Source: Saccharofermentanales bacterium
GTDB taxonomy: Bacteria; Bacillota; Clostridia; Saccharofermentanales; DTU023
NCBI GenBank assembly: GCA_050951845.1
Contig: JBMNJV010000006.1
Span: 295,565-359,564, forward strand
DNA: 64,000 nt
Reading direction: 5' to 3'
Under the pieces are notes generated by a model that did no database searches, was not told where the DNA came from, and saw nothing but the letters and a program-made list of their open reading frames with translations. The translations under genes were made by a program, and so were the position numbers. Shown in pieces: positions 26,638-64,000 of the stretch (position 1 is the first letter of the stretch; the number at the start of each line of letters is the position of its first letter).

Positions 26638-28557
26638 TTATTTTTGTAAATGGTTATATAAAGCCAACGATAAATTTCTCATGGTATAATCTCCGATGAC
26701 TCCACCTTTAGAATCAGACATAATAGCCAACACATAGTCCATTTTAGGAGAAAAGATTATTGCTCCGTCATGGCTATAGACACCAACATCTCCGGTTTTA
26801 TTTGCTGTTTTCACTCCGGCGGGCAAATAATACGGAATTTTAAAAATAAATTGTTGTCTGGACAATCTGCCCAACATATCTTGTGAAGCCTTGGCACTAG
26901 TAATTTCACCTCTATAAACCATTGACAAAAATTTTCCTATATCTTTAGCTGAAGTAACCATGACATTATCTGAAGGATACGAATAGTAATAATAACTGGA
27001 TATGAAATAAGCATGAATGATTGTATCATTAAATCCATATTTAGCACAGAATTCATCAATTAGAGAAAAGACATTCTTATGAGGATATGTTTTCTGCAAC
27101 AACATCACCATATTATTACTTGCAGCATTGTCACTTACAGTAATCATCAATTCCAGTTGATTATCTACATAGTCCGTCATTGACAAGTCACCTTTTTCAA
27201 TGGCTTCATAGACTGTACCCATAATAAATAGTTTTGCCATACAAGCAGGATATAACCCTTGATTGGAATTAGTATAAACGTATCCGGTTTCGAGCTCCTC
27301 AAAATATACCTGTAACGTTCCGCCGTATGAATCAATATATGGTTTAATGATGTTTCCGGCACTTTCAACAAGCGTTTTTTTGTAATAAATATCGTCATCG
27401 CCGGTATATTTTTCAGCTATGTAAGCTGTCTGACCGTTATAGGTTATTCTGATCCATGCTCCTTCACGATAACCCGTTACCTTAGTGCCTCCGGTTAATG
27501 TACCAAGTAAAATTTTCGAATTCTTTGCCGGACGAACTGCCAGTGTTCTGCTTTGGACGTACAAGGTCTCCGCTATAAGCGGCGGTGTAACATCAGTAAA
27601 TTTCGCCGCTATATACGCTGTCTTGCCGTTATAAGTTATTCTGATCCATACACCTTCGCGATAACCTGTTACCTTAGTCCCCCGGGTTAATGTACCAAGT
27701 AAAACTGATGAATTCTTGGCAGGACGAACTGCCAGTGTTCTGCTTTGGACGTACAAGGTCTCCGCTATAAGCGGCGATGTAACATCAGTAAATTTCGCCG
27801 CTATATACGCTGTCTTACCGTTATAGGTTATTCTGATCCATGCACCTTCGCGATAACCCGTTACCTTGGTTCCCCGGGTTAATGTACCAAGTAAAACTGA
27901 TGAATTCCTGGCAGGACGAACTGCCAGTGTTCTGCTTTGGACGTATAAGGTCTCCGCTACAGGCGGCGGTGTAACATCAGTAAATTTCGCCGCTATATAC
28001 GCTGTCTTACCGTTATAGGTTATTCTGATCCATGCTCCCTCACGATAACCCGTTACCTTGGTTCCTCCGGTTAATTTGCCAAGTAAAACTGATGAATTCC
28101 TGGCCGGACGAACTGCCAGTGTTCTGCTTTGGACGTATAAGGTCTCCGCTACAGGCGGCGGTGTAACATCAGTAAATTTCGCCGCTATATACGCTGTCTG
28201 ACCGTTATAGGTTATTCTGATCCATGCTCCTTCACGATAACCCGTTACCTTAGTGCCTCCGGTTAATGTACCAAGTAAAATTTTCGAATTCTTTGCCGGA
28301 CGAACTGCCAATGATCTGCTCTGGACATACAAGGTTTCCGAAACAGGCGGAACTGCAGAAGTTCTTTGTGTAACATGCTCTTGTTCACTTAAATCATTAT
28401 TATCTTCAATTATAATTGAATCTGCTGAAACCGGTACCCCCACTGATAATAAGCTAAATATTATGAGCATTACCAAGATCAGAACACATGGAATTTCGAA
28501 AACTATCTTTTTTTGTTTTTTCATCATTTTGCATTTAACCTTTAAAATAATTATCAT
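26638..28557 (-). CDS. Secreted protein: five SH3b-like repeats plus a class-A beta-lactamase-like hydrolase domain (CxxK variant); probable start ATG at 28527
   Basis: YPACMAKLF, MITVSDNAASN (SDN), ANKTGD (KTG); hydrophobic signal peptide ending PVSA. Confidence 0.85.
   Translation of the reverse strand: MIIILKVKCKMMKKQKKIVFEIPCVLILVMLIIFSLLSVGVPVSADSIIIEDNNDLSEQEHVTQRTSAVPPVSETLYVQSRSLAVRPAKNSKILLGTLTGGTKVTGYREGAWIRITYNGQTAYIAAKFTDVTPPPVAETLYVQSRTLAVRPARNSSVLLGKLTGGTKVTGYREGAWIRITYNGKTAYIAAKFTDVTPPPVAETLYVQSRTLAVRPARNSSVLLGTLTRGTKVTGYREGAWIRITYNGKTAYIAAKFTDVTSPLIAETLYVQSRTLAVRPAKNSSVLLGTLTRGTKVTGYREGVWIRITYNGKTAYIAAKFTDVTPPLIAETLYVQSRTLAVRPAKNSKILLGTLTGGTKVTGYREGAWIRITYNGQTAYIAEKYTGDDDIYYKKTLVESAGNIIKPYIDSYGGTLQVYFEELETGYVYTNSNQGLYPACMAKLFIMGTVYEAIEKGDLSMTDYVDNQLELMITVSDNAASNNMVMLLQKTYPHKNVFSLIDEFCAKYGFNDTIIHAYFISSYYYYSYPSDNVMVTSAKDIGKFLSMVYRGEITSAKASQDMLGRLSRQQFIFKIPYYLPAGVKTANKTGDVGVYSHDGAIIFSPKMDYVLAIMSDSKGGVIGDYTMRNLSLALYNHLQK
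27400..28338 (-). repeat. Five near-identical 192-bp (64-aa) SH3b-like repeats
   Basis: ETLYVQSRTLAVRPA…GAWIRITYNGKTAYIAAKFTD recurs with a 192-bp period (28338, 28146, 27954…). Confidence 0.95.
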
Positions 28558-28724
28558 TTATCAAAAATGCATAACATATCTCTTAATGCATTTTGACAAT
28601 CAATTTTCACTCAATTTTCACTTTTGATTCAAGTAGAAATGATTTCTGTTTTCTTTTGCTTCATAATATATATTATAGCATGTTTATAATATGTTTTTTA
28701 TAAATATACAATTATTAACTTCAT

Positions 28725-30473
28725 CTATTTATACTGTGGACGTGCAAAACCCCTGATCACACGTGATCCTATTTCATATCTTTTTCTCGCTACATAATCT
28801 ATACCAAAATCTTCCGGAGAAGCACAATTTACAGGGGAAGTATTACCCTCTATTGTATAAAAAAATCCATTATCAATACTTTCTACAAAACCGATATGAT
28901 TCGGAAAATCATTGTTCGGCTGTCTGATTGCCTTCCAGCTAAAAGCTACCAAATCCCCCGGGCGAGGTGTTATAGTGCCATCTTCAATCCATTGATCCTT
29001 ATTCATAAAAAATTTAATATGATAGTTAACAGAAACTTCTCTGCCCAGAATATCTGTTGTATTTGTCCGGATACCGATAAAACTTACAAAAGCGGCACAC
29101 CAGGGATCTTTATAACTCAGCGGATAGCCACGCGGAAGATCGGGCTGCTTATTATACGTATCTATAATATATTTATACTCCGGATTATGTTCATTAGCAC
29201 CGATCCATTTACGTGCTTCATCTAACACTCTGTCAAGCTTTTGAATACCCGTTTTGGGATTTACTACTTCCTCTGTAGTATATTTCGCCGCTATATACGC
29301 TGTCTTACCGTTGTAGGTTATTCTGATCCATGCTCCCTCGCGGTGACCCGTTATCTTTTGACCTTTTGCTAATGTACCGATTAACTCCGACGAATTCTTC
29401 GCCGGACGTACGGCTAATGGTCCGGCCTGAACGTATAATGATTCCGCCGGTGGGTTCGTATCAGTGAACTTTGCTGCTATATAAGCTGTTTGACCTTTAT
29501 ACGTTATTCTGATCCATGCTCCCTCACAGTAACCCGTTATTTTTTGACCTTTTGTCAATGTACCGATAACTGATCCGTTGGGGGCATTTCGTACGTAAAC
29601 TGCACTTTTCGCATAACAGATAACCGCAGGGTTATCGGTTGAGGTCATGCTCATTGCCACATAGGCTGTGTTTCCTTTATAGGTAAATCTGAGCCATGCT
29701 CCATGGATTGTACCGGTCACAAACAACGGCATTTTGGGCGTAGTGATTATACTGCCGTTCGGTGCACTTCTGATTATTGTATTAGCTAAGATATAACGTG
29801 TTACTTGAACCGGCGTTGCTTGCAGCAAAGGAATATAGACATAACCTGTTTTGTTATTATAGGTGAATCGCACCATATTACCGATCAGAACGCCTTGTAC
29901 CTGATGACCTCTTGGTATTGTTCCGATAATTGATCCGCCGGGAGCATTTCTTACATTAACTGTGCTTTTTGCATAACCCGTTATTTCAGGATTAGCGGTT
30001 GTAGTTACACTCATTGCAACATAGGCAGTGCTTCCGTTATAGATAAATCTCAGCCAGGCTCCTTCTTTTGTACCGCTTACCAGCAACGGCATTTCCAAAG
30101 TTGTGATTTCTATTCCGCCAGGTGAACTTCTGATTATTGAATTGGCTGAGATATAGCGCGTCACTTGGTTAGCGTTTGTAATTGAACGACTATACGATAT
30201 TGGCAGGGCCAGTGTTACGTCAGATTGAACAACCTCAGTGAAAGCATCTGTTGTTGATTCTTCAGTTACTGATTCTTGTTCATCGGATATCGCTTCAAAT
30301 ATTGACTCCTCTGCTTCTGATTCTTTTTCTGTTTCTTCTGTTGTTTCAACAGGTTCAGTATTCTTTTCTGCAGCCTCTGCTTTTACGTGCACCGTAAAGA
30401 TAATCGTAAATACCGGTGAGATCAACAGTAAGCAAAGAAAGTTTTTGATTACATTATTTTTACCCTTAACCAT
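28725..30473 (-). CDS. Secreted SH3b-repeat protein with a C-terminal CHAP amidase/peptidase domain
   Basis: DPWCAAFVS (Cys), PRPGDLV, HIGFVES (His), TIEGNT, IRGFARP. Confidence 0.88.
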   Translation of the reverse strand: MVKGKNNVIKNFLCLLLISPVFTIIFTVHVKAEAAEKNTEPVETTEETEKESEAEESIFEAISDEQESVTEESTTDAFTEVVQSDVTLALPISYSRSITNANQVTRYISANSIIRSSPGGIEITTLEMPLLVSGTKEGAWLRFIYNGSTAYVAMSVTTTANPEITGYAKSTVNVRNAPGGSIIGTIPRGHQVQGVLIGNMVRFTYNNKTGYVYIPLLQATPVQVTRYILANTIIRSAPNGSIITTPKMPLFVTGTIHGAWLRFTYKGNTAYVAMSMTSTDNPAVICYAKSAVYVRNAPNGSVIGTLTKGQKITGYCEGAWIRITYKGQTAYIAAKFTDTNPPAESLYVQAGPLAVRPAKNSSELIGTLAKGQKITGHREGAWIRITYNGKTAYIAAKYTTEEVVNPKTGIQKLDRVLDEARKWIGANEHNPEYKYIIDTYNKQPDLPRGYPLSYKDPWCAAFVSFIGIRTNTTDILGREVSVNYHIKFFMNKDQWIEDGTITPRPGDLVAFSWKAIRQPNNDFPNHIGFVESIDNGFFYTIEGNTSPVNCASPEDFGIDYVARKRYEIGSRVIRGFARPQYK

Positions 30474-30678: not shown

Positions 30679-30724
30679 AAGAGTCAAATCTATCGGCACC
30701 TAACCACCGATAGATTTGACTCTT
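30679..30724. terminator. Perfect 18-bp-stem hairpin, possible terminator downstream of the 30926-34729 gene
   Basis: aagagtcaaatctatcgg-(10-nt loop)-ccgatagatttgactctt; no strong U-tract. Confidence 0.55.
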
Positions 30725-30725
30725 A

Positions 30726-30925: not shown

Positions 30926-33900
30926 TTAATCTTGTTCGGCATAAAAACCAAGACCTTTTTCTGTATTATAAAGTCCATATCCGGGCATTATCTCCACCAT
31001 TTTTCCAGTTGAATTATCACGCAAAGAATAAAAAACGCAACCCCAGCTTAAATATTTTTCCGGTAAGGTTTCTGTTCTTTTACCCGGCAAATACAGTATA
31101 AAATCACCGTTACCTTCCAAGCCATAGGGTCTGCTGCTGACCACTCTTACGCCATTTTCTATTTTTGATTTTCCCTCAGGCAGAGCAGTTTGCAGGCTTT
31201 CTCTTTTTAAACGATACGTATATGGATCGATTTTTTCAATAATAGAAAACTGACCGCTGAAATCACATTCATTTCTTGTACCACGGGGATAACCCGGACC
31301 GTTATCTCCCGCATTTGTATCAGAATGATTACCGTAATAAAAGCCGTTCTCATCAATATGCAGATTAGTAGCCCAAGCTCCGACGCCGCTCGCGAACCAA
31401 AAAACATCAGGCAATTTGGCAAAAATTGCCTTTTTCTCCGCCTCTGATAAACCGGAATTTGGTTTCTTGACAGTTGTAGAACGAATTGCCACATAAGCTG
31501 TTCTTCCGTTATACGTGAACTTGAACCATGCTCCCTGAATTGTACCAGTCACGCGGATAGGTTGCCGCGGTCTGCTGACGATACTGCCGTTCGGGCTGCT
31601 CCTGATTATCGAATTGGCATATATGTATCGCGTTGTTTTTGCAGGTACAGGATTCTTTTGTAGGAGTACAGCATACACATATGCTGTCTTGCCGTTATGA
31701 GTGAATCGCACCATATTCCCGACCAGGACTCCGCTTACTCGATAACCTTTCGGTACAGTTGTAACAACACTTCCGTTCGGCGTATTTCTCACATATAGTT
31801 TTTGTTTGGCATAACCGGTCATCACCGGATTTCTTGTTGTCGTGGAACGAATTGCCACATAGGCCGGTTTACCGTTATAGGTAAACTTGAACCAGGCTCC
31901 CTGAATTGTACCGCTCACACGAAGCGGGCGCCACGGTCTGGTGACTATACTGCCGTTCGGGCTGCTCCTGATTATCGAATTTGCATATATGTATCGCGTT
32001 GTTTTTGCAGGTACAGGATTCTTTTGTAAGAGTACGGCATATACATATGCGGTCTTTCCTTTGTGAGTAAATCTCACCATATTACCGACAAGGACACCCT
32101 TGATTTGAGATCCGCGCAGTATTGTATCCGTGACTGCCCCGTTCGGCGTATTTCTTACATATAGTTTTTGTTTGGCATAACCGCTTATTACGGGATTTCT
32201 CGTTGTCGTGGAACGCAGTGCAACATAAGCAGTACTTCCGTTATAGGTAAATTTAAACCATGCGCCTTCGATTATTCCGGTCACCAAAAACGGGCGCCAC
32301 GGTCTGCTGACTATACTGCCGTTCGGTGCACTTCTGATTACTGAATTCGCTAATATATAAGTGGTTGCACGGACAGGATTCTTTTGCAGGAGTACGGCAT
32401 ATACATATGCGGTCTTTCCTTTATGCGTGAAACGTATCATATTACCGACCAGGACACCCTTGACTTGAGTACCGCGCAGTATTGTGTCCGTGACTGATCC
32501 GTTCGGCGTATTTCTTACATATAGTTTTTGTTTGGCATAGCCGGTCATTGCAGGATTTCTGTTAGTGACTAACTTAGCTGCAACATATGCTGTTCTTCCG
32601 TTATAGGTAAACTTCAGCCATGCTCCCTCTATTGTCCCCGTTATTAAGATTGGCCGCCATAGTTTTGTAATGATTTCACCGTTCGGCGCACTTCTGATTA
32701 TTGAATTCGCATATATATATCCTGTTACTATTACAGGTTTTGCTTCAACAACAGTGAAGGTAATCCTTGCTGAATCTGTAGAACCTGCTGAGTTTGCTGC
32801 AGTTACATATGCAGTGTATTCTCCGGCAGGCAGTGTATTGATTGACAAGACTCCTTCCGCCATATCCTGAGTAAGCACTCTTTCCGAATCCTTATCGATT
32901 CCTATTGTGTATTTTGCAGGATTGTTATCACCACTGGCAGTGAAGGTCAAGGTTTCTCCCTCTGTCACAGAATTTGAAGAAACGGTTAAGGTTGCTGATG
33001 TCGGTGCGATCGCAGGCGTCGTAAATGATTGCAGCGAACCATCATATCTGGTACCGCCTATTACAGCATAGAATTTATAATAATATGTAGTGTCAGGCTG
33101 AAGTGCTCCAAACCACTTATTGCAATTATAATACATTACGGAATGAGGATTTGGATAAGTTTCTTCTTTGTGAGTTAAATTGTTGGGATCACTGCCAAAA
33201 TAGCAGCCAAAAGAGCTTGTACGCTGTGCCGTATGGAATGCCGTTCTAAAAGTTGCGTCTGTTGCAGTCAATCCTTCAACCCAGTATCCGGTTACAATAT
33301 CATCCAAATTTCCGGTTGTTGATGCCGTTCTGAACGACTGCAGTGATCCCTCATATCTGGTACCGCCTATTACAGCATAGAATTTATAATAATATGTAGT
33401 GTCAGGCTGAAGTGCTCCAAACCACTTATTGCAATTATAATACATTACGGAATGAGGATTTGGATAAGTTTCTTCTTTGTGAGTTAAATTGTTGGGATCA
33501 CTGCCAAAATAGCAGCCAAAAGAGCTCGTACGCTGTGCCGTATGGAATGCCGTTCTAAAAGTTGCATCTGTTGCTGTCAATCCTTCAACCCAGTATCCGG
33601 TTACAATACTGTCTAAATTTCCGGTTGCCGGAGGCTGGGTATAACCAACAATTTTTTCCGGACGTGGTCGGATCCAACCTGTACAATAATTTCCACACCA
33701 TTGACCTTTACTATTAGTCCACTCATAGTTATATCTTTGCGTAGCTTGATGTGTTGCTCTTCCTCCCGATTGATGAAGAACTTGCATTGAGCTTTGATTT
33801 GCTGAAAGTACAACAGCCGTATGACCCTTTGGATTGCCACCTTCTCCACGCCAAACTACTACATCACCGCGTTGAGGTACATTACTTCCGTTATATGGAA

Positions 33901-34729
33901 TTTTCTCGAAATAAGCACTGCTTGCATTATTATATTTCTCCTCACCATTCCCTTTACCTATAGTATTCAAATAACTCTGTCCAAAAATATACTGTGCATA
34001 ACTATTTGGCACATCGACACACCATGCACCATTGTCATCCATATCAAGCCTTTGTCCCGGAGCCCAAGCAAACCATTCTTCCTGACGAGAGGTAGTCGCC
34101 GCTTTAACTTCTATCTGTCGCTCACTATTGAGCATTGGCAACTCTTCCGTGTTGTCACTTGTTTGTTTTGTCGATTCAGTTTCTCCGGTTGATTCATCTG
34201 CAACTTCTGCAGATTCAGCTACTTCATCTTCAGGCTCAATTGTTTCTTCTGTAGGCTCAATTGCCTCTTCGGTCGGTTCAGGCGCTTTTTCCGTAGGTTC
34301 GGTCTTTTCTTCTGCAGGTTCGGTCGCTCCATCTGTTGATTCAATTGTTTCTTCTATTCCCGGTTCCGGCAATAACTCGTTGTCTCCGGTTTCTGATTCG
34401 GCTGCTCCGGCTTCATCTTCACTCTCAGTTGATACTACTTCATTTACTTCCTGATTTGATTCATCATTTGCTTCATCATTTGATTCCTGATCTGAATCAT
34501 TCGCTATTGTTGCAGGTGTTTCAAGTTCCGGTTCAACGTCATCAGGCTCACTGCTACCCGGTTCAGCTTCTGCCGACAAATCAGGTTCAGTAAGTGCCGC
34601 TTCTAAGTTTTCGGCTTCGTTTGCATCCAGCGGTTCAGCTTTAACCTGCTCTGTGAAAACACTTCCCAAAACTAATGCAAATAAAACTAATAGAATTAAT
34701 GTTTTTTGTGCAATATTTATCTTCTTCAT
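30926..34729 (-). CDS. Large secreted multidomain protein: acidic region, CHAP domain, two 103-aa Fn3-like repeats, Ig-like domain, SH3b-like repeats, conserved unknown C-terminal domain
   Basis: GAWCVDVP…GDVVVW…GHTAVV (CHAP dyad); LQPDTTYYYKFYA twice with a 309-bp period; C-terminal FWFASGVGAW…YPRGTRNECDFSGQF. Confidence 0.82.
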   Translation of the reverse strand: MKKINIAQKTLILLVLFALVLGSVFTEQVKAEPLDANEAENLEAALTEPDLSAEAEPGSSEPDDVEPELETPATIANDSDQESNDEANDESNQEVNEVVSTESEDEAGAAESETGDNELLPEPGIEETIESTDGATEPAEEKTEPTEKAPEPTEEAIEPTEETIEPEDEVAESAEVADESTGETESTKQTSDNTEELPMLNSERQIEVKAATTSRQEEWFAWAPGQRLDMDDNGAWCVDVPNSYAQYIFGQSYLNTIGKGNGEEKYNNASSAYFEKIPYNGSNVPQRGDVVVWRGEGGNPKGHTAVVLSANQSSMQVLHQSGGRATHQATQRYNYEWTNSKGQWCGNYCTGWIRPRPEKIVGYTQPPATGNLDSIVTGYWVEGLTATDATFRTAFHTAQRTSSFGCYFGSDPNNLTHKEETYPNPHSVMYYNCNKWFGALQPDTTYYYKFYAVIGGTRYEGSLQSFRTASTTGNLDDIVTGYWVEGLTATDATFRTAFHTAQRTSSFGCYFGSDPNNLTHKEETYPNPHSVMYYNCNKWFGALQPDTTYYYKFYAVIGGTRYDGSLQSFTTPAIAPTSATLTVSSNSVTEGETLTFTASGDNNPAKYTIGIDKDSERVLTQDMAEGVLSINTLPAGEYTAYVTAANSAGSTDSARITFTVVEAKPVIVTGYIYANSIIRSAPNGEIITKLWRPILITGTIEGAWLKFTYNGRTAYVAAKLVTNRNPAMTGYAKQKLYVRNTPNGSVTDTILRGTQVKGVLVGNMIRFTHKGKTAYVYAVLLQKNPVRATTYILANSVIRSAPNGSIVSRPWRPFLVTGIIEGAWFKFTYNGSTAYVALRSTTTRNPVISGYAKQKLYVRNTPNGAVTDTILRGSQIKGVLVGNMVRFTHKGKTAYVYAVLLQKNPVPAKTTRYIYANSIIRSSPNGSIVTRPWRPLRVSGTIQGAWFKFTYNGKPAYVAIRSTTTRNPVMTGYAKQKLYVRNTPNGSVVTTVPKGYRVSGVLVGNMVRFTHNGKTAYVYAVLLQKNPVPAKTTRYIYANSIIRSSPNGSIVSRPRQPIRVTGTIQGAWFKFTYNGRTAYVAIRSTTVKKPNSGLSEAEKKAIFAKLPDVFWFASGVGAWATNLHIDENGFYYGNHSDTNAGDNGPGYPRGTRNECDFSGQFSIIEKIDPYTYRLKRESLQTALPEGKSKIENGVRVVSSRPYGLEGNGDFILYLPGKRTETLPEKYLSWGCVFYSLRDNSTGKMVEIMPGYGLYNTEKGLGFYAEQD

Positions 34730-34833
34730 TTCGTACGTCTCCTTGTAGAAATTCTTGAATTGTACCGATAGATTGTTTCGATTATTTAATAATTATTCAA
34801 TATTACGTGTTACTATTATACATTACACCGATG

Positions 34834-34884
34834 TTTACCCTTAACCATTGTGCCGTCTCCCTATTGATTTTACTTGTTTTGACA
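34834..34884 (-). pseudogene. Orphan 5' gene head (RBS + ATG GTT AAG GGT AAA), copy of the start region of 28725-30473
   Basis: Matches 30459-30509 and ~37790-37830; the frame closes after 10 codons (MVKGKHRCNV*). Confidence 0.8.
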
Positions 34885-55402: not shown

Positions 55403-55655
55403 TCAAGGTTCTGTTCTGCTAAGTAAAGTCAACCATGTTCTAACACTATTGTTCAGTGTGATATCGGTAATCATTACGGCATTAAAATCAGGATTCAACA
55501 TATTTTTATTGTGTTCTTCTGAATTTTTCCAACCTTTAAATACGAATTCTACAGTAGGATAACCCCTTAAAATATTTTCATCATACCAAAAAACAGAATA
55601 CGTCGGGACTGCAGTGTCCAAAGTTTCTGTCATTCAGTAGCCTCTGTAATTTCAG
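55403..55655 (-). pseudogene. Collapsed CAP-family paralog: short N-terminal acidic relic fused to the variable C-terminal half of a CAP domain
   Basis: TEITEATE (cf. AEITEVAE of 46321-48594) joined out of frame to DTAVP…ENI…WKNSEEHNKNMLNPDF…SRTEP*; no signal peptide or SH3b repeats. Confidence 0.85.
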
Positions 55656-55700
55656 TATTTTCTTAAAGTTATTCTCACAATTCTTTCATGTGATACTAAT

Positions 55701-55751
55701 AAAAAAACAGCATACATACCCATATATAGATTCTATACCGGCATGTATGCT
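55701..55751 (-). terminator. Probable intrinsic terminator after the 55779-58076 gene
   Basis: gcatacat…atgtatgc stem plus U-tract; paralog of 48676-48728. Confidence 0.6.
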
Positions 55752-55778
55752 TTAAACGATTTATTGTCGGATTAATTG

Positions 55779-58076
55779 TTATTTGAATATTACATCTACT
55801 GCGTATCTGGCTTGATCTTGAGTAAACATGGTAGCAGCTTCTGATGACAATTGATCATACAGATTTTGTTTATTCCAATCAGGGAATGTTTTTAAGAAAC
55901 CTCTGCCCGATTTAACAGCCTCCTGATACCAATTGGCACCACAATTTTCGGTAGCATATTGTGCTGCTTTCTCACTAAATTTTTCAAATAATAATTGTTC
56001 GTATAAATCTTGTTTTGAAAAAGATATTATTTTTAAATATTGTTTTGCCACAGATAAAGCATTTTTATATTCATTAGTTACGGTTGATCCATATGAAGCA
56101 GTATAACTTACGCCATATGATGACGGTTTATAATCTCTGATATCTGATTTATAAACATATTGTGTAATTCCGCGGTAATCAACTTTCAACCAATCTCCTT
56201 GCCAAACACCTGTTATATCATTTGTGAATCTATGGCTATCGTAACTGTTGCCATTTGGTTCAAAATATTTTTTGGCATTTGCCATAACATAACCTTTATA
56301 GGTTACAGGCTTGGTTGAAACTAAACTGTAGTATACAGTTGCTTTCTTGTTATTATAAGTAAATACAACTTTATTGCCGATCAATTGTCCGGATACCGGT
56401 CGTCCTTTGAATAATGTTCCGATAACCGAATTATCACTATAACTTCTGACAGACAAGTTTTGACTTGCATACCCGGTTACTTTAACCGGATCTTTTTGCA
56501 ATAATGTGGCATAAACATAAGCATTTTTTCCGTTATAGGTAAATCTTACCATGTTACCGACCAAAACACCTTTGACCTGACGACCTAACGCTAATGTTCC
56601 GATCACTGATCCACTCGGGGTATTTCTTACATTCAATTTTTGTTTAGCATAACCTGCCATAGCAGGATTGCTTGTCGTGGTTACACCCATCGCTACATAA
56701 GCGGCCTTACCGTTATAGGTAAATCTGAGCCAGGAGCCTTGTATTGTACCGGTTACAAAAAGCGGACGCCATAAAGTGGTCACCACGCTGCCGTTCGGCG
56801 CATTTCTGACTACTGATTTAGCATAGATATAGCATGTTGTTTGAATCGGCGTTCCTTGCAGCAACGATGCATAAACATAGCCGGTTTGTCCTTTATAAGT
56901 GAACCTGACCGAATTTCCAACCAGCACACCTTTAACTTCGTAACCTTTGGCAATCGTACCCAAAACCGCTCCACCCGGAGTTTTTCTTACGTTAATTGCA
57001 TTCTTGGCATAACCGGTGATCGGCGGATTATTGGATGTTGTTACACCTTGTGCTACATAAGCTGCCTTGCCGTTATAAATAAATCTGATCCAGGAACCAT
57101 GAATTGTACCGGTCACAAACAACGGCATTTTGAGCGTTGTAATCACACTGCCGTTTGGTGCATTTCTGACTACCGAATTAGCATAAATATAGCATGTTAT
57201 TTGAATCGGCGTTCCTTGCAACGTAGAAACATAAACATAACCGGTTTGGCCATTATAAGTAAATCTGGCCCTGTTACCGACCAGAACACCTTTGACTTCG
57301 TAACCTTTGGGAATGGTACCTAAAACTGTTGCACCGGAAGCATTTCTTACATTAACCGCACTCTTCGCATAACCGGTTATCGCCGGATTATTGGTCGTTG
57401 TCACGCTTGTTGCTACATAAGCTGCATTGCCGTTATAAGTAAATCTGAACCAGGATCCTTGTATTGTACCTGTCACGAACAGCGGCATTTTGAGCGTAGT
57501 AATTACGCTGCCGTTAGGTGCACTTCTGATTATTGAATTAGCATAGATATAGCGTGTTACTTGTGATTGTATTGAACGAGCTGCAGGTTTCGGAGCAGTA
57601 ACAACTTCATCAGATTGAGTGCTATCATTTACTGTTTCACTTAACGATTCTTCGACTGCTTCTTGTGCTTCTGCTACAACTTCTTCGATTGATTCCGGTT
57701 GTTCTTCGGTTGATGCAGGTTGTTCTTCCTCTGATTCTGCGATTGCAGTTTCTTCAGGTGAGATTTCCGGTTCTTGAACTTCTGCTTGTTCTTGAACTTC
57801 TGTCGATTCTTCAACTTCTGTACTCTCTGCCGATTCCACTTCTGTTGGTACCGGGTCAGTCGGTGTAACGACTTGTTCCTCTCCAGCAAGTGTTTCCGAA
57901 CTTTCTGTTAAGTCCTCACTTGCCGTTGTTTCAGCAATTTCATCAATTGTTTCTACAGTTTCTGAAGTTTCAATTATTTCAGCATTTACACTAATTGAAG
58001 AGATGTTTGTAAATACCAATGAAAATAAGAGAACCCAAACAATAGTTTTAAGAATCATATTGTTTTTCTTAATCAT
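55779..58076 (-). CDS. Secreted SH3b-repeat protein with two C-terminal Ltp-family repeats
   Basis: EYKNALSVAKQYL…SKQDLYEQL…EKFSEKAAQYA and NWYQEAVKS…KQNLYDQLSSE…FTQDQARYAVD. Confidence 0.82.
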   Translation of the reverse strand: MIKKNNMILKTIVWVLLFSLVFTNISSISVNAEIIETSETVETIDEIAETTASEDLTESSETLAGEEQVVTPTDPVPTEVESAESTEVEESTEVQEQAEVQEPEISPEETAIAESEEEQPASTEEQPESIEEVVAEAQEAVEESLSETVNDSTQSDEVVTAPKPAARSIQSQVTRYIYANSIIRSAPNGSVITTLKMPLFVTGTIQGSWFRFTYNGNAAYVATSVTTTNNPAITGYAKSAVNVRNASGATVLGTIPKGYEVKGVLVGNRARFTYNGQTGYVYVSTLQGTPIQITCYIYANSVVRNAPNGSVITTLKMPLFVTGTIHGSWIRFIYNGKAAYVAQGVTTSNNPPITGYAKNAINVRKTPGGAVLGTIAKGYEVKGVLVGNSVRFTYKGQTGYVYASLLQGTPIQTTCYIYAKSVVRNAPNGSVVTTLWRPLFVTGTIQGSWLRFTYNGKAAYVAMGVTTTSNPAMAGYAKQKLNVRNTPSGSVIGTLALGRQVKGVLVGNMVRFTYNGKNAYVYATLLQKDPVKVTGYASQNLSVRSYSDNSVIGTLFKGRPVSGQLIGNKVVFTYNNKKATVYYSLVSTKPVTYKGYVMANAKKYFEPNGNSYDSHRFTNDITGVWQGDWLKVDYRGITQYVYKSDIRDYKPSSYGVSYTASYGSTVTNEYKNALSVAKQYLKIISFSKQDLYEQLLFEKFSEKAAQYATENCGANWYQEAVKSGRGFLKTFPDWNKQNLYDQLSSEAATMFTQDQARYAVDVIFK

Positions 58077-58263
58077 TTATTATCCTCCTTTTTGGATATA
58101 ACTTTTGTGTCATACAAATTATATTGGATTATTGTAAAGAACCGGTTAAATAAAACCAATTTCATATAAAACAACAACATAATCGCTTCCATCTCAATAT
58201 CAGGTTGTTAATTTGGTTTATTTGTTCCGTTCTGTATCGTTTCGCTCTCAACTGACTTATACA

Positions 58264-58302
58264 ATAAAAAAACAGCGTACCGGCTGAAACAGGCACGCTG
58301 TT
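58264..58302 (-). terminator. Intrinsic terminator after the 58374-60542 gene
   Basis: Minus strand AACAGCGTGCC-loop-GGTACGCTGTT followed by TTTTT. Confidence 0.75.
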
Positions 58303-58373
58303 ATGAAATCTGGTTTTATGTGTTTGTCTCAAGTTCAGAGTGTATTAATTCAAATATGGATCATATCTGAAAA

Positions 58374-60542
58374 TTATTTAATTGCACCACATTCGCAGAC
58401 ATAATCGATACTTTCCAGATATTGAGGTTCTTTAACATAGATCGTCCAAGGAATTGTGGGTTTATCACGAACTCCGTCCCATTCAATTGACGGAACATAA
58501 TTTCCATGCTGAGTCGAAATGTCATTAGCAAAACAATAATCATCATAAATATCCATATCTTCCGGACTTTTTGCAATATATCCGGTTGCAAAGTAGTAAG
58601 CTATTCCGCCATACTCTTGTACACCCACAGGAAGAGTTTCACCATTGCCATATTCCGGATCACTTACATCAAGTGCCATAATTATTGTATCTTTAAAATA
58701 GCCATCAGATATTTTCTCTTTTTTATAAACTGATCTCCAATTATGTTGATGACTGAGGGTGGGAACTGTAGAACTTAATTCCACACAAGCTGAGTAAGCT
58801 ATGTAGCCTTTTTGATAAGTAAAATGAAACCATTTGTCTTTAATATAACCATTTTCTGCAAGAAATGTTTGCTCAGATATTTCGATTATGCGACCTAAAG
58901 GCTTAGGTTTAGTGCGAATAATTGAATTAGCTGCTACATATCTAGCCATATAGACAGCATTCTGTTGGAGGAATGAAGCATCCACATAACCGGTTTCATT
59001 ATTAAAATGAATCTTTATATTATTACCTACTAAAACACCTTGCACCTGGAAACCGATTGGAATTATATGAGTAATTATTCCACCCGGTGTTTTTCTGACA
59101 TTAACAGTTCGATTGATATAACCTGATATCGGCGGGTTATTCGCGGTTGTTACACCTGCAGCGACATAAGCAGTACTCCCGTTATAATTAAACTTAATCC
59201 ATGCACCTTCTCTCGTACCTTTAATCAATACCGGTCGCCATAAAGTAGTGATTTCCTCTCCGTTCGGTGCACCTCGGATAATTGAATTCGCATAGATATA
59301 ACATGTTACTTGAACCGGTGTTGCTTGTAACATGGATACGTAAACATAAGCTGTTTGCCCCTTATAAGTGAAGCGTACCATATTGCCTGCCAAAACACCG
59401 TTGACCCGATTTCCTAAAGGAAGTACACCAAGAACTGATCCTCCGGGAGCATTGCGCACGTTAACTGCACTCTTAGCATAACCGGTAATCGGCGGGTTAT
59501 CGGTTGTCGTTACACTATTTGCTACATAAGCATCATTTCCGTTATAGGTAAACTTGAGCCAGGCTCCTTCAATTGTTCCTTGAACAAACAAAGGCATTTT
59601 GAGAGTTGTTATTGCGCTGCCGTTCGGTGCACTTCTGATGATTGAATTGGCATAGATATAACGTGTTACTTGAACCGGTGTTGCTTGTAACATGGATACG
59701 TAAACATAAGCTGTTTGCCCTTTATAAGTGAAGCGTACCATATTGCCTACCAAAACACCGTTGACCCGATTACCTAAAGGAAGTACCCCAAGAACTGATC
59801 CCCCGGGAGCATTGCGTACGTTAACTGCGCTTTTCGCATAACCGGTAATCGGCGGGTTACCGGTTGTCGTTACGCTGTTTGCCACATAGGCTGTAGCTCC
59901 GTTAAAGCTAAACCTGAGCCAGGCTCCTTCAATTGTTCCTTGAACAAACAAAGGCATTTTCAGAGTTGTTATCGGACTGCCGTTCGGTGCACTTCTGATT
60001 ATGGAATTAGCATAAATATAGCGTGTTACCTGTGATTGTCTTGAACGGCGGGATTGTATCGGTGAGTCCTTCGTTTCAACAGATTGAGCATCCTCATTTG
60101 ATTCTGCTGTTATTGACTCTTCTGTTGCAACGGTGTTTTCAGTTAAAGTCGTTTTAGAATCGCTTGTTTCTTCTTCGGATGTTTCTGACTCAGTGATATC
60201 AGTAGCAGTTTCCGGACTGTCAGCTAAATCCTCACTTTCTGTTGTTTCTGCAATCTCAGATATACCGGAAGCTTCCGGTATATCAGTAATTTCTGTTGCC
60301 GGATTTGCCATTACACCTGATCCAACGGATTGAGTTGGTTCAGATATTTCTGTTTCTGTATCTGTTTCTTCTGTTGTTTCCGTTGATCTTGTTATTTCAT
60401 CAAGCTCTGCTTTTTTTCCAGTTTCAGCACTCTCTTCCAACGTCTCTGCTTTTACAGCAACTGAAAAAACACTTGTGAACACTATTGAAAGCAATAAAAG
60501 CATCACAAAGAAATTTGTAACAGTATTCTTTTTTCTTAACAT
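58374..60542 (-). CDS. Secreted SH3b-repeat protein with an unknown C-terminal domain bounded by HQHNW and CECG motifs
   Basis: Family signal peptide, acidic linker, 360-bp A/B repeat pairs; tail HQHNWRSVY…YVCECGAIK. Confidence 0.82.
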   Translation of the reverse strand: MLRKKNTVTNFFVMLLLLSIVFTSVFSVAVKAETLEESAETGKKAELDEITRSTETTEETDTETEISEPTQSVGSGVMANPATEITDIPEASGISEIAETTESEDLADSPETATDITESETSEEETSDSKTTLTENTVATEESITAESNEDAQSVETKDSPIQSRRSRQSQVTRYIYANSIIRSAPNGSPITTLKMPLFVQGTIEGAWLRFSFNGATAYVANSVTTTGNPPITGYAKSAVNVRNAPGGSVLGVLPLGNRVNGVLVGNMVRFTYKGQTAYVYVSMLQATPVQVTRYIYANSIIRSAPNGSAITTLKMPLFVQGTIEGAWLKFTYNGNDAYVANSVTTTDNPPITGYAKSAVNVRNAPGGSVLGVLPLGNRVNGVLAGNMVRFTYKGQTAYVYVSMLQATPVQVTCYIYANSIIRGAPNGEEITTLWRPVLIKGTREGAWIKFNYNGSTAYVAAGVTTANNPPISGYINRTVNVRKTPGGIITHIIPIGFQVQGVLVGNNIKIHFNNETGYVDASFLQQNAVYMARYVAANSIIRTKPKPLGRIIEISEQTFLAENGYIKDKWFHFTYQKGYIAYSACVELSSTVPTLSHQHNWRSVYKKEKISDGYFKDTIIMALDVSDPEYGNGETLPVGVQEYGGIAYYFATGYIAKSPEDMDIYDDYCFANDISTQHGNYVPSIEWDGVRDKPTIPWTIYVKEPQYLESIDYVCECGAIK

Positions 60543-60594
60543 TTTATCCTCTTCTTTATAAATATTATTCTTTTCTTTATCAAAACAATATTGC

Positions 60595-62916
60595 TCACCA
60601 AGATTCAGTTTTGCTAAACAACGTTACCCATGTTCTAATGCCATCGTTCAGTGTGAGACCGGTAAACATTACGGCATTAAAATTAGGATTCAACATATTT
60701 TCATTGTGTCCTTCTGAATTTTTCCAACCTTCAAATACATGTTCTACATTCAAATAGCCCCATGCAATATTTTCACCCATCCAAGAAACATAATCTGACG
60801 GGACTGCTGTGAAACAGCTTGAACCGTCCGGTCGGGTATGGGAAAACTCATATGCAATTTCAGCAGCTCGTATATTTCCGCCAGCAAGCCAATTGTAGTC
60901 ATAAACAAGAGGTGCAGCTCCGTTATTTTTCCTGTGTTGATTGATTAAAGCTAAAAACCGTTCCATCTCACCGTATGTCAAAGCTGTCCCTTCAACGACT
61001 GTTCCATCTACTCCGGTAAAGCTGGTCTGGTTTGTAACTGCTTGATTGGGATTATTATTTCTTAGTTGTGCGCGATAAATATATCCGGTTCGCCCTCGGT
61101 ATTGAATTTTCAACCAATTGCCCTGCCATGTTCCGCTGACATAAGTATATTGTGAATACCTGCCTAAAACACTTCCGTTAGGGGCACTCCTGACATTTGT
61201 ATTCGGAATGGCATATCCGGCATATTGAATCGGAGTTGCTGATAAATTATGACGATAAACCGCCATGTCAATGCCGTTTTTATTCTCTATAATATAGTCA
61301 CCAATGACTCTGCCTTTAATAAATTCGCCTCTCGACATTTTACCGACTATATGCTTTAAATTATTGTAATTTCTGACATTAGTATCTGACTTGGCATAAC
61401 GTACCTGAATTATCGGATCTTTACGCAGTGTTCCGATATGGACATAACAAGTTTGAGAACACCAATATCCTTCGAATATGAATTCAACCCAATTGCCGTT
61501 CATTGTCCCTGAAATTTCCATACCGATTGGCAGTTCTTCATAGATTTCACTATTTATATCAGGAGAAACTCGTGCGTTGGTATCACCCCTTAAATATCCG
61601 GTTACAGTTAAAGGGGTAGTTTGAGTATTTGAATTATATACATAATTCAGCCGGCTATTTCTTTGGAAATAGAGCCAATTACCCGCAACATTTACTTTTA
61701 CATATATCGGCATATCTAATTTCTCTATTACCTGACCATTGGGACTGTTACGTAAATTTGATCCTGCTTTGATATAAACATATTTTTGTTCAACAGGACT
61801 ATCTTGGAGTAAGGGTACATAGACATAGCCTGTACTGCCGTTATAAGTAAATTTGACCCAGTTGCCGACCAGAACGCCTTTGACTTGGTCACCTCTGATT
61901 ACTGTACCGATAACTGCTCCGCCCGGGGTTTTTCTTACATTAATTGCACTTTTGGCATATCCGGTAATCGGCGGGTTATTGGTTGTGGTCACGCTCATTG
62001 CCACATAGGCAGTACTTCCGTTATAGGTGAATTTGAGCCAGGCACCCTGGATTGTACCGGTCACGAACAACGGCATTTTAAGAGTAGTTATTATACTGCC
62101 GTTTGGTGAACTCCTGATGATCGAATTGGCATAAATATAGCGTGTTACTTGTGACTGTCTTGAACGGCGGGATTGTGCCGGTGAATCCTTCGTTTCATCA
62201 GACTGAGCATCCTCATTTGATTCAGCTGTTGCTGATTCTTCTTGCTCTGTTACTGACTCTTCTTGCTCTGTTGCTGACTCTTCTTGCTCTGCTCCGGATT
62301 TATCTGTTGGTGCCGGCTGTTCTGCCGGTTCTGATTCTTCTGAGACTGTTTCTTCGGTTGAAGTTTCTTGTTCAACTGTTGTTTCTTCAGTCCTTACTTC
62401 AGGTTCTTCCGCTATTGTTTCTTCACTCGTTGATTCTTCTGTAGTAACAGTGTTTTCAGGTGAAGTACCTTCGGAATCGCTCGTTGCTTCTTCTGATAAC
62501 ACTTCGTCTGTTTCAGATTCGGTGAGTGCAACGGCAGTTTCCGGACTGTCAGCCAAGTCCTCGCTTTCAGTTATTTCTGCAATTTCATCAACTGCTTCGA
62601 TCGTTTCTGCAATCTCAGCTATATCGGAAGCTTCCGGTATATCAGTAATTTCGATAGCCGGATCAGTTATTACATCTGATTCAACGGGTTGTGTTGGTTC
62701 AGATATTGCTGTTTCTTCTGTTTCTTCTGTTTCTTCTGTTTCTTCTGTTGTTTCCGTTGATCCTATTATTTCAGCAAGCTCTGTTGTTTTTCCAGTTTCA
62801 GCATTCTCTTCCAACGTCTCTGCTTTTACATCGACTGAGAAAACACTTGTGAACACTATTGAGATTAATAGAATCCAAATTATGTTTCTGATCACAGTAT
62901 TCTTTCGCTTTACCAT
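60595..62916 (-). CDS. Secreted SH3b-repeat protein with a C-terminal CAP/SCP domain
   Basis: FSHTRPDG, GENIAWG, WKNSEGHNENML; family signal peptide. Confidence 0.88.
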   Translation of the reverse strand: MVKRKNTVIRNIIWILLISIVFTSVFSVDVKAETLEENAETGKTTELAEIIGSTETTEETEETEETEETAISEPTQPVESDVITDPAIEITDIPEASDIAEIAETIEAVDEIAEITESEDLADSPETAVALTESETDEVLSEEATSDSEGTSPENTVTTEESTSEETIAEEPEVRTEETTVEQETSTEETVSEESEPAEQPAPTDKSGAEQEESATEQEESVTEQEESATAESNEDAQSDETKDSPAQSRRSRQSQVTRYIYANSIIRSSPNGSIITTLKMPLFVTGTIQGAWLKFTYNGSTAYVAMSVTTTNNPPITGYAKSAINVRKTPGGAVIGTVIRGDQVKGVLVGNWVKFTYNGSTGYVYVPLLQDSPVEQKYVYIKAGSNLRNSPNGQVIEKLDMPIYVKVNVAGNWLYFQRNSRLNYVYNSNTQTTPLTVTGYLRGDTNARVSPDINSEIYEELPIGMEISGTMNGNWVEFIFEGYWCSQTCYVHIGTLRKDPIIQVRYAKSDTNVRNYNNLKHIVGKMSRGEFIKGRVIGDYIIENKNGIDMAVYRHNLSATPIQYAGYAIPNTNVRSAPNGSVLGRYSQYTYVSGTWQGNWLKIQYRGRTGYIYRAQLRNNNPNQAVTNQTSFTGVDGTVVEGTALTYGEMERFLALINQHRKNNGAAPLVYDYNWLAGGNIRAAEIAYEFSHTRPDGSSCFTAVPSDYVSWMGENIAWGYLNVEHVFEGWKNSEGHNENMLNPNFNAVMFTGLTLNDGIRTWVTLFSKTESW

Positions 62917-63034
62917 CTTGCCATCCCCCTATCCAGTTATACTGTAGTCGTAATTTGTTTTACTATCCTTATCAACTTTTATCTGCTTTTATAAGAGTCA
63001 TCAATATTCTTTGCGTGATTGTTTTATGTCTGTC

Positions 63035-64000
63035 TTAATCCAGATAGATACTGCGCAGGATTTCAACACATTCATAAACGCTCATATTCGGAGTTAATTC
63101 CGGGCGGTAGACAAATTCTAAAAGCAACCAGTCAATCGGCATTAACTCTTGAGTTGTAGTCCAATTTTGTTGGAAAATACTGTCCGGATAACGATAAGAA
63201 TCGTTCGGCAAGCCCAGTGATTGAATGAATTCTTCCATAATCAAATGATTCATTCCCTCGCGTCCCGGATAATCATTAGATACAGCCATCCGGGCATAAA
63301 AATTATAACCGTAGTAATCATGCCAATGCACCACAAAGCCCCAATTATTTTGAATATAATCTCCCTGGAAGATTTCTTCAAAATCAGCTAACGGTGCGAT
63401 ATGAAATTCATAATTATAATCGGTGGAACCTGCTTCCGCATATTGTATATCAAGACCGGTCAGTCTTTCTATGACGGGGATAATCATATTTAATCTGGCA
63501 AAATCAGCAGAGGTAGGCTGACCGAAAGTACCGATTCGAATCGGTGTTGTTGTATCCCAACGATTTAAGACTGCCGGCACGGACGGATCAAATTCATTCC
63601 CTCCGGCTATTTCCGGAAAATATTCTAAAGCATCTTCAATAAATTGCGGATCGAATTGATGGCGACGATTATATAACGGGCCATTTGCCAAAATGTCAGC
63701 TCTGGTGAAATCTTCCGCCTTTAATAAACCGGAGGTTGGCTGATTGACAGTTGTAGAGCTCATTGCCACATAGGCTGTTCTTCCTTTATAAGTAAACCTG
63801 AGCCAAGCTCCCTGAATTGTGCCAGTCACGCGAACCGGATTTTGCAATTTAGTAATTATACTGCCGTTCGGTGCACTTCTGATAATGGAATTGGCAACTA
63901 TGTATCTGGTTACCTGCACCGGGTTCTTTTGCAAAAGTACAGCGTACACATAAGCCGTTTTTCCGTTATAGGTGAACTTAACCATATTGCCGACCAAAAC
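63035..64000 (-). CDS. 3' part of an SH3b-repeat protein with a C-terminal DUF2927-like (zincin-like) domain; 5' end lies beyond the window
   Basis: SH3b-like repeats, then LNRW…IRIG…HLIMEEFIQSLGLPNDS…DSIFQQ…IDWLLLEFVYRPEL. Confidence 0.72.
   Translation of the reverse strand, partial: VLVGNMVKFTYNGKTAYVYAVLLQKNPVQVTRYIVANSIIRSAPNGSIITKLQNPVRVTGTIQGAWLRFTYKGRTAYVAMSSTTVNQPTSGLLKAEDFTRADILANGPLYNRRHQFDPQFIEDALEYFPEIAGGNEFDPSVPAVLNRWDTTTPIRIGTFGQPTSADFARLNMIIPVIERLTGLDIQYAEAGSTDYNYEFHIAPLADFEEIFQGDYIQNNWGFVVHWHDYYGYNFYARMAVSNDYPGREGMNHLIMEEFIQSLGLPNDSYRYPDSIFQQNWTTTQELMPIDWLLLEFVYRPELTPNMSVYECVEILRSIYLD

Follow-up and report, generated by a model that had tools for sequence, protein, structure and literature searches.

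A tandem array of SH3b-repeat genes for putative wall-bound proteins, with mosaic paralogs, in an uncultured Clostridia bacterium

Results

Gene content and extent of the array

We describe an array of genes for repeat-bearing, putatively exported proteins in a 64,000-nucleotide (nt) stretch of DNA from a Saccharofermentanales bacterium (assembly GCA_050951845.1, contig JBMNJV010000006.1, positions 295,565-359,564, forward strand), the whole of which we call the window. The region is likely to be a lineage-specific tandem gene family from which this uncultured Clostridia bacterium draws much of its secreted and non-covalently wall-bound surface proteome. Members of the family join blocks of bacterial SH3 (SH3b) repeats to variable C-terminal domains. 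Between 26638 and 63997 the window holds 14 long open reading frames (ORFs), all on the minus strand and named g1 to g14 in order; since those at 37875-42377 and 44912-46246 are the two parts of one LRR gene split by an IS66-family insertion sequence (IS), they represent 13 array genes. An earlier note, made from the letters of this DNA, had described at least 13 co-oriented genes plus relics over more than 37 kb, and we indeed found 13 genes and three relics at 26638-64000. Position 64000 is not the end of the array: a metagenome contig (L002), 100% identical to window 50595-64000, continues with the rest of g14, a Fic gene, a RidA gene, two more array genes (g15 and g16) and a hexapeptide-transferase gene, in this order. 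With this extension of about 8.7 kb past the window, the array comprises roughly 46 kb, 15 genes and 93 SH3b repeats. Intergenic gaps in the window measure 2-452 nt and contain relics of array genes only. The features are as follows.

26638-28557, minus strand: g1, signal peptide, 5 C-type SH3b repeats and a beta-lactamase-fold (PBP-A-like) domain
28725-30473, minus strand: g2, acidic spacer behind an A/B-type signal peptide, then repeats in the order A-B-A-(B/C chimera)-C and a C-terminal CHAP homologous to the g16 CHAP
30679-30724, no strand: 46-nt palindrome of two IS66-type terminal inverted repeats, downstream of g3
30926-34729, minus strand: g3, acidic region behind a distinct signal peptide, then an N-terminal CHAP, an FN3-like unit in two copies, an Ig-like domain, 7 A/B repeats and a 176-amino-acid (aa) C-terminal orphan domain
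34816-34884, minus strand: relic of a g2/g4-type gene lying ~120 nt upstream of the g3 start, with 5' untranslated region, ribosome-binding site (RBS) and a truncated start that reads MVKGKHRCNV*
35014-37797, minus strand: g4, signal peptide, acidic spacer, 8 A/B SH3b repeats and a 247-aa near-orphan C-terminal domain
37875-42508, minus strand: g5, 3' part of the split LRR gene, LRR_5 repeats and 6 C-terminal A/B SH3b repeats
42509-44962, plus strand: insertion sequence of the IS66 family with three ORFs, bounded by 20-nt terminal inverted repeats and flanked by an 8-bp target duplication
44963-46246, minus strand: g6, 5' part of the same LRR gene, coding for the signal peptide, an E/T/D-rich spacer (15-18-nt tandem repeats) and the first LRR_5 units
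46321-48594, minus strand: g7, signal peptide, spacer, 6 SH3b repeats (an A-B pair and 4 divergent ones) and a CAP/YkwD-like domain
48757-50688, minus strand: g8, signal peptide, spacer, 6 SH3b repeats and a double Ltp module
51000-51030, minus strand: relic shortly downstream of the g9 stop, the final 32 nt of a gene resembling g12
51066-53249, minus strand: g9, CAP paralog with the most diverged CAP domain
53252-55366, minus strand: g10, CAP paralog, 2 nt upstream of g9
55404-55616, minus strand: relic, 3' 213 nt (~70 codons) of a CAP gene with the 5' part missing, between g11 and g10
55779-58076, minus strand: g11, signal peptide, spacer, 8 SH3b repeats and a double Ltp module
58374-60542, minus strand: g12, signal peptide, spacer, 7 SH3b repeats (with an internal A-B duplication) and a 134-aa orphan C-terminal domain
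60595-62916, minus strand: g13, mosaic CAP paralog whose 5' two-thirds resemble g9 and whose CAP domain resembles g7
63035-64000, minus strand: g14, 3' part; the full gene on L002 (834 aa) has a signal peptide, spacer, 7 SH3b repeats and DUF2927
L002, beyond the window: g15, 1051 aa, SH3b-GH25-SH3b-Amidase_3
L002, beyond the window: g16, 618 aa, SH3b-CHAP

The nearest genomes are metagenome-assembled genomes (MAGs) from biogas reactors, namely Clostridiaceae bacterium AS21ysBPME_111, AS08sgBPME_186 and AS08sgBPME_403 (naming: PMC7038595), and homologs of the repeats carry the NCBI label 'Saccharofermentanales bacterium'. With relatives of this origin, the role in host interaction proposed in the earlier note has no basis. 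We treat AS21ysBPME_111 as a sister species because its housekeeping genes are 85-91% identical to those of the window and syntenic with them (locus L019). The A/B type of repeat is rare: only three GTDB species have at least 54% protein identity to the query pair in the best segment, a metagenome scan with the repeat profile returned only three close contigs, and a word-indexed homolog search with the A/B profile returned only five fragments. A metagenome scan with the g11 protein yielded no confirmed locus.

The repeats are bacterial SH3 domains

A hidden Markov model (HMM) built from the repeats themselves identified the 93 units (60-64 aa each) in the 15 proteins that the array has with its extension; about 77 of these units fall inside the window. 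Tandem Repeats Finder (TRF) reported periods of 360/366 nt, corresponding to the A/B pair, and of 192 nt. The alternation of A and B described earlier was confirmed, but it does not hold throughout. A third type, C (ETLYVQSRSLAVRPAKNS...GYREGAWIRITYNGKTAYIAAKFTD), is found in the peptidoglycan-hydrolase genes that lie at either end of the array, namely g1, g15 and g16 together with the 3' part of g2, while the CAP genes have A-B followed by four divergent repeats and the Ltp genes have two divergent repeats last.

As judged from profile matches and a predicted model, the assignment of these repeats to the bacterial SH3 (SH3_3) fold is solid, as the earlier note had proposed. Whole-protein scores against SH3_3 (PF08239, gathering score 27 bits) are 32.7-97.2 bits for g1-g5 and g7-g13 (E 6e-28 for g1), and the in-window fragment of g14 scores 24.3 bits. 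Sequence matches in the PDB are SH3 domains of surface proteins from Clostridium perfringens and Bacillus, and the NCBIfam match is the SH3 region of the wall-binding EntA-D/EntFM proteins of B. cereus. AlphaFold2, given an alignment of 20 in-window A-B-type pairs, modelled the A-B pair as two six-stranded barrels with a predicted local distance difference test score (pLDDT) of 96.4 and a predicted template modelling score of 0.85. The best Foldseek matches of this model in the PDB are tandem bacterial SH3 modules that come from wall hydrolases and from binding domains of endolysins (6biq, 4krt, 6ilu, 2krs and 2kt8); they include Trichomonas vaginalis NlpC1/2, Psm (the endolysin of phiSM101), the binding domain of LysPBC5 and the C. 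perfringens entries 2krs and 2kt8, which align as single domains with a root-mean-square deviation of 2.6-3.0 Å over 63 residues.

Because the repeats are homologous to SH3_3 wall-binding domains, the repeat block would be expected to anchor the protein in the wall. The blocks are basic (net charge +13 to +63, isoelectric point 9.4-11.1), which fits binding to an anionic wall. On the other hand, SH3_3 domains have been suggested to take part in protein-protein contacts as well (review PMC5817068), and Foldseek also finds SH3b-like lipoteichoic acid-binding domains of Lactobacillus surface-layer (S-layer) proteins (7qeh, 8aol). As the basic repeat blocks and the acidic tails described below are electrostatically complementary, one could imagine that the blocks mainly make protein-protein or matrix contacts, in an S-layer-like coat or a biofilm scaffold with an acidic brush, rather than bind peptidoglycan. 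We consider this improbable, given that no member of the family resembles a dominant lattice-forming S-layer protein and that the closest sequence relatives of the repeats are the wall-binding modules of hydrolases and Ent proteins.

Export signals, spacers and anchoring

A heuristic scan for hydrophobicity and motifs, applied to all 15 proteins, found exactly one hydrophobic segment in each, N-terminal and signal-peptide-like. It found no second transmembrane segment, no C-terminal LPXTG and no lipobox in any of them, in agreement with what had been noted before. The common signal peptide and acidic spacer reported at the same time are present in most genes, with two exceptions: g1 and g3 have signal peptides that differ from the rest, and g1 is without a long acidic spacer. 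The spacers consist of 20-29% E and 12-23% T and have a net charge of -28 to -66, giving the proteins a marked polarity of acidic N-terminal spacer versus basic SH3b block. Taken together, a signal peptide, an acidic spacer, an SH3b block and a variable C-terminal domain, with neither a covalent nor a lipid anchor, make up a layout that fits non-covalent display on the wall.

The organism also uses sortase anchoring, as seen from a gene at window 10609-12954 for a 781-aa LPXTG-anchored protein (DUF6273, Flg_new and a T/P-rich stalk encoded by 18-nt tandem repeats). This gene is flanked by an 888-nt direct duplication (9426-10313 and 13721-14608, 97% identical), each copy of which holds a gene for a 235-aa OmpR-type response regulator.

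Effector domains

Every effector named in the earlier note was recovered in the Pfam scan: Beta-lactamase2 in g1 (E 1.3e-28), CHAP in g2 and g3, LRR_5 in g5/6 (E 7e-232 in g5), CAP in g7, g9, g10 and g13, Lipoprotein_Ltp in g8 and g11, and DUF2927 in g14 (1.7e-22). The best solved relative of the g1 domain is Tll2115/PBP-A. At the position of the SxxK nucleophile of class A enzymes and PBP-A, the beta-lactamase-fold domain (aa ~424-430 of g1) has CMAK, with SDN and KTG kept, and the cysteine is conserved in the sister-species ortholog (L019). This may be a DD-peptidase-like domain that depends on a thiol or is altered in its catalysis.

Among the CAP genes, g7 has matches to Pfam CAP (1.9e-8) and NCBIfam YkwD (4.8e-14), and a PDB sequence search with its CAP domain gave no match. 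The CAP domain of g9 (Pfam 4.9e-5, 24.6 bits) is 60-64% identical in nt sequence to all paralogs and far more diverged than its own repeat block. In the neighbouring g10, the fourth repeat is degenerate, and g9 starts 2 nt past the g10 stop. The divergence of the g9 domain and the degenerate repeat of g10 may reflect relaxed selection on redundant copies.

Three C-terminal domains, those of g3, g4 and g12, had no Pfam match even at E<=1. The g3 domain had no usable match in PDB and none in PHROG; elsewhere in the same protein there are weak Pfam matches to Big_13/PKD/fn3 and a TRF period of 309 repeated 1.9 times, which marks a duplicated FN3-like unit. A full HMMER scan of 1.84 billion representatives with the g4 domain returned only the protein itself and one other of 23% identity, while word-indexed homolog searches with the g4 and g12 domains found none. 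The C-terminal region of g12 was modelled by single-sequence AlphaFold with low confidence (pLDDT 32).

Both g8 and g11 contain complete double Ltp repeats, two helix-turn-helix units in tandem, as do Ltp-type superinfection exclusion proteins. Lipoprotein_Ltp (PF07553) matches two stretches in each (1.3e-31 in g8, 5e-23 in g11), PHROG 4980 'superinfection exclusion' matches g8 (E about 1e-31 to 8e-31) and g11 (3.9e-28) over profile positions 78-177 of 181, and the Ltp module of g8 aligns to residues 9-103 of PDB 4eqq (95/107, E 1.6e-11). Two hallmarks of Ltp proteins, a lipobox and a prophage location, are both absent, there being no phage genes in the window or its extension. By analogy with CWB1 in CbpL (see below), the SH3b block in g8 and g11 would take the place of the lipid anchor. 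PADLOC gave no match for six array proteins. Phage defence had earlier been proposed for the array at large; on the domain evidence, a role against phage entry is a fair hypothesis for the two Ltp genes only.

The effectors also bear on whose wall is addressed. There are six catalytic wall-hydrolase domains in five genes (CHAP three times, GH25 plus Amidase_3, and the PBP-A-like domain), the best structural matches of the repeats include endolysin binding domains, and the habitat is a dense anaerobic digester community. All of this would suit released weapons or foraging enzymes with an SH3b block that targets foreign walls, as in lysostaphin-type bacteriolysins or endolysin binding domains. 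Yet 10 of the 15 genes carry non-lytic domains (CAP, Ltp, LRR, DUF2927 and orphans) on the same chassis, there are no immunity genes, and the hydrolases have the same architecture as housekeeping autolysins such as CpAcp (PMC8470621), which makes release against other cells very unlikely. The most likely function, suggested by domain content and by analogy to known families, is that the producer displays or retains enzymes and binding proteins non-covalently in its own wall.

Mosaicism, duplication and relics

We compared the paralogs by gene-by-gene BLAST, sliding-window identities, identity at 4-fold degenerate sites, and quartet max-chi2 with permutation. One good example of mosaicism is g13, which in sliding windows is 90-99% identical to g9 over the first ~460 codons and 94-95% identical to g7 in the CAP domain, where g9 is only 60-85% identical. 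Quartet-informative sites in CAP (46/45/26) are spatially clustered (max-chi2 18.9, permutation p<=0.0005). By this comparison, the CAP paralogs are mosaics. Shared tracts also connect genes with different effectors: the repeat blocks of g3 and g4, two genes with unrelated effectors, are 91% identical over 1248 nt, including 347 nt in one tract at 98.3%, and have repeats that are 98-99% identical; the Ltp gene g8 has a spacer end and first repeat with 92-95% identity to those of g9, g10, g12 and g13; and the signal-peptide regions of g12 and g13 are 93% identical. Identity at 4-fold degenerate sites is 84-97% in the shared tracts versus 60-64% elsewhere, and the similarity of the tracts is thus due to recent conversion and not to constraint. 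Homogenisation or duplication within genes was seen in g1, g4, g12 and the LRR gene, and the paralogous flanks of the Ltp genes g8 and g11 point to segmental duplication of a CAP-unkB-Ltp unit.

A fusion of chassis and effector can be traced in g2. In its fourth repeat (aa 284-343), the first 22 codons have 74% identity to type B and 47% to type C, while the remainder has 68% to C and 44% to B. By these identities, a crossover inside the repeat joined an A/B-type signal peptide and spacer to C-type repeats and a g16-type CHAP. The same B/C chimera is present in a sister-species locus (L008), and the fusion is therefore old, predating the species split.

All three relics resemble parts of array genes. 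The one at 34816-34884, with a five-codon start, is 94-97% identical to the RBS regions of g2 and g4. The one at 51000-51030 is 90.6% identical to nt 2138-2169 of g12, and the intergenic DNA beside it is paralogous to the g12-g11 intergenic region. The CAP relic at 55404-55616 is 81% identical in nt sequence to the last 213 nt of g13 (tblastn 65% aa, E 5e-27) and is called as a 76-aa ORF in JGI contigs. The displaced C-terminal pieces, that is, one CAP 3' remnant and one 32-nt tail, fit displacement of cassettes or, equally well, simple deletion.

One array member has been knocked out by an insertion. The IS66 element in the LRR gene has three ORFs including TnpB_IS66 and DDE_Tnp_IS66 (Pfam), and its 8-bp target duplication (GATTGTTA) lies at 42501-42508 and 44963-44970; in silico removal of the element and one copy of the duplication restores a single 1969-aa LRR ORF. 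Two independent JGI contigs end ~125 nt inside each IS66 end, from which we conclude that the insertion is real and the IS probably multicopy. Separately, the palindrome at 30679-30724 has perfect 18-nt arms around a 10-nt loop, with arms identical to the IS66 terminal inverted repeats at 16 of 18 positions; the only other matches to these arms in the window are the two IS66 ends, where 0.01 would be expected by chance. From its sequence it looks like a 46-nt miniature IS derivative or an excision scar.

How far do these events amount to a system? The earlier note held that shared repeat DNA is a recombination substrate for swapping effectors. The substrate part of this claim stands: on the evidence of mosaics, conversion tracts, the chimera and relics, shared repeat DNA has served as a substrate, and at least one chassis-effector fusion arose in this way. 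A dedicated diversity-generating locus, in which repeat homology swaps effectors onto an expressed chassis at functionally relevant rates, could likewise explain breakpoints in or beside repeats, recent conversion tracts of 98% identity, gene content that differs between congeneric species, and displaced 3' and 5' relics similar to the orphan modules of polymorphic toxin loci. We nevertheless attach little probability to it. All 13 in-window genes are complete, each with its own RBS, start and signal peptide, with no layout of an expressed site and silent cassettes; neither silent cassettes nor immunity-like small ORFs were found in the intergenic regions of the array, and IS66 transposase is the only recombinase-type gene. 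An inverted-repeat search of the long intergenic regions produced only terminator-like hairpins, the palindrome with IS66 ends and weak pairs of 12-14 nt, none of them convincing as an invertible promoter. The nt divergence between most paralogs is 15-30%, and the sole clear fusion, that of g2, is older than the species split, which speaks for rare, historical events. The dynamics of the array are those of a tandem family under ordinary birth-and-death evolution and gene conversion, with no sign of a dedicated swapping system. Simple duplication with congruent trees, or an invariant array, which the earlier note had set against its own interpretation, is not what we found: the CAP genes are mosaics and gene order differs in the sister species.

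Genomic setting and the sister species

The array is bordered on its left by an opu-type ABC transporter and lies within a housekeeping region with mfd, pth, murA, suf, malQ and proS. This context is chromosomal and non-mobile, and the G+C content (about 0.37-0.42) is the same as in the flanks. A horizontally acquired island was ruled out by this flank-like composition together with flanks that are syntenic with the sister species, and a prophage or endolysin cluster by the absence of phage genes. An Rfam scan of the window gave zero matches.

On sister-species contigs the genes occur in the orders g12-g11-g7 and CAP-g2-g1, with an extra SH3b gene beside g1. The g12 ortholog has only 4+1 repeats there (vs 7), and there are many additional LRR_5-SH3b paralogs. 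A second subfamily, with N-terminal LRR_5 regions and C-terminal A/B SH3b repeats, is found on AS21ysBPME_111 contigs L014, L016, L018, L020 and L022; it has a different signal peptide (MKKKLxLRIQAxVLxLLL...) and numbers at least seven copies, with a tandem group of three on L020. Use of the chassis thus extends far beyond the array locus. The g11 ortholog (L007 2781-4807 vs window 55648-57675) is 95.9% identical in nt sequence, above the 85-91% of housekeeping genes, for which interspecies exchange, a mis-binned contig of a closer strain and strong constraint are possible explanations.

Two further observations concern neighbouring DNA. The Fic-domain gene (409 aa) and the RidA-like gene (127 aa), at L002 5386-7239 (~1.7-3.9 kb past window 64000), sit inside the array between g14 and g15, and neither has a signal peptide or SH3b repeats. 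At window 15026-15520, a 92-nt unit is repeated 5.4 times (94% matches) between the NifU-like and cysteine desulfurase genes of the suf cluster, with no Rfam match.

Discussion

Our analysis suggests how the proteins of this array might work. They would be exported by the Sec pathway via a type-I signal peptide, and the mature protein begins with an acidic, E/T-rich, low-complexity tail of 130-220 aa, as seen directly in the translations. This is followed by a strongly basic block of 4-8 SH3b domains, mostly A-B pairs that are predicted to pack as rigid units, and by homology the block would retain the protein in the wall through multivalent binding to peptidoglycan or an anionic wall polymer. 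The C-terminal domain would then provide the activity: wall remodelling in the case of CHAP, GH25 plus amidase and the PBP-A-like domain, binding or other roles in the case of LRR_5, CAP/YkwD, DUF2927 and the three orphan domains, and possibly a block to phage DNA entry in the case of the Ltp-type double module. As sequence comparison shows, the family has grown and keeps changing by tandem and segmental duplication, duplication of repeats within genes, gene conversion, and unequal or illegitimate recombination, with breakpoints often falling in shared repeat DNA, occasionally giving new chassis-effector combinations and leaving relics behind.

Several points weigh against this interpretation. 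Single repeats score 16.8-24.7 bits, below the Pfam threshold, and repeat types D-H alone give zero SH3_3 matches; we count single A-type and divergent repeats as SH3b because they are homologous to the other repeats and because of the predicted model. Since the acidic spacer lies at the mature N-terminus instead of separating anchor from effector, it does not qualify as a classical stalk. As for transcription units, a promoter consensus scan stayed at chance level, and terminator-like matches are mostly on the wrong strand and inside genes. The sister-species comparison rests on short MAG contigs that break in repeats and are possibly mis-binned or collapsed. Finally, the organism is uncultured and seen in metagenomes only, and wall binding and localisation are inferences.

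The array overturns no current ideas, and its value is incremental. It indicates that a whole lineage can rely on SH3_3 repeats as its general chassis for surface display, as had been documented before for CWB2, choline-binding, SLH and GW modules, and it does so for uncultured biogas-reactor Clostridia whose cell surface had no prior description. The locus is also a compact natural experiment in domain shuffling, with breakpoints, a chimeric repeat, relics and an IS knockout in one 46-kb stretch. In terms of applications, the A-B SH3b pair with its confident model is a possible wall-binding tag for the lineage, and a wall-anchored full Ltp module could serve to test whether superinfection exclusion works when sited at the wall instead of the membrane. 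Also on offer are three effector domains that have essentially no homologs and a beta-lactamase-fold domain with a cysteine at the nucleophile position. A more far-reaching scenario, which we regard as unlikely, is that the 360-nt A/B unit is a portable recombination handle that re-assorts surface effectors, such as a wall-anchored Ltp block to phage entry and the three domains without relatives, within populations on ecological time-scales, and that the polarity of acidic tail, basic SH3b block and effector is a new mode of surface organisation.

Comparison with known systems

Among the closest counterparts are the Cwp proteins of Clostridioides difficile, a set of 29 paralogs with three CWB2 repeats, many encoded in one cluster and including the antiphage CwpV (PMC5817068, PMC4737114). 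Both are families of Sec-exported paralogs with common non-covalent wall-binding repeats, diverse further domains (in Cwp amidases, proteases, adhesin-like and antiphage domains) and clustered genes. The array differs in that its anchor is SH3_3, in 4-8 copies and A/B pairs, and not CWB2; in having neither an S-layer protein nor a recombinase-controlled switch as in cwpV; and in its polarity, with effectors C-terminal and an acidic tail N-terminal. Neither CWB2 (PF04122) nor CWB1 (PF01473) appeared in any Pfam scan of the array proteins, so the array would work like the Cwp and choline-binding protein (CBP) families without being a member of either.

The CBPs, too, are a modular family built on a repeated wall-binding module of variable repeat number, although their anchor, CWB1, binds choline on teichoic acid and their genes are dispersed. 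Pneumococcal CbpL has a lipobox-less Ltp (PF07553) C-terminal to the wall-binding module (PMC5137146), the same placement as in g8 and g11, but consisting of one 48-aa unit where g8 and g11 have the full double module. For the hydrolases of the array (g1, g2, g15 and g16) the precedent is the layout of signal peptide, tandem SH3_3 and C-terminal catalytic domain in C. perfringens Acp, C. difficile CwlA and B. cereus EntA-D/EntFM (PMC8470621, PMC8262956), Acp having a signal peptide plus ten SH3b domains, along with a catalytic domain (PMC8470621). There the genes occur singly or in small families, and the domains are enzymatic or 3D; here 15 genes stand in tandem, and CAP, Ltp, LRR_5, DUF2927 and orphan domains are found on the chassis as well.

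Giant1-5 of Apilactobacillus kunkeei (PMC12863079) are likewise encoded by consecutive genes for extracellular proteins, with a basic SH3b-like, putatively wall-binding end, no transmembrane or LPXTG anchor, and a history shaped by recombination. These five proteins measure 3000-8000 aa, and each has a beta-solenoid body and a single SH3b-like domain at the C-terminus, as opposed to proteins of 580-1970 aa with multi-copy SH3_3 blocks ahead of small globular effectors. The earlier note had drawn an analogy to polymorphic-effector arrays, which extends to evolutionary mechanics only: the array shares with Rhs and contact-dependent inhibition (CDI) loci a conserved N-terminal part, variable C-terminal modules and displaced 3' remnants, but Pfam, intergenic and PADLOC scans showed no toxin domains, no downstream immunity genes and no dedicated secretion system. 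The precedents in Cwp, CBP/CbpL, CpAcp and Giant1-5 make the array much less novel than that note implied. Surface-protein families of this kind are well known in Gram-positives; what is new is the SH3_3 base, the unusual size and tandem layout, and the unusual effectors and polarity.

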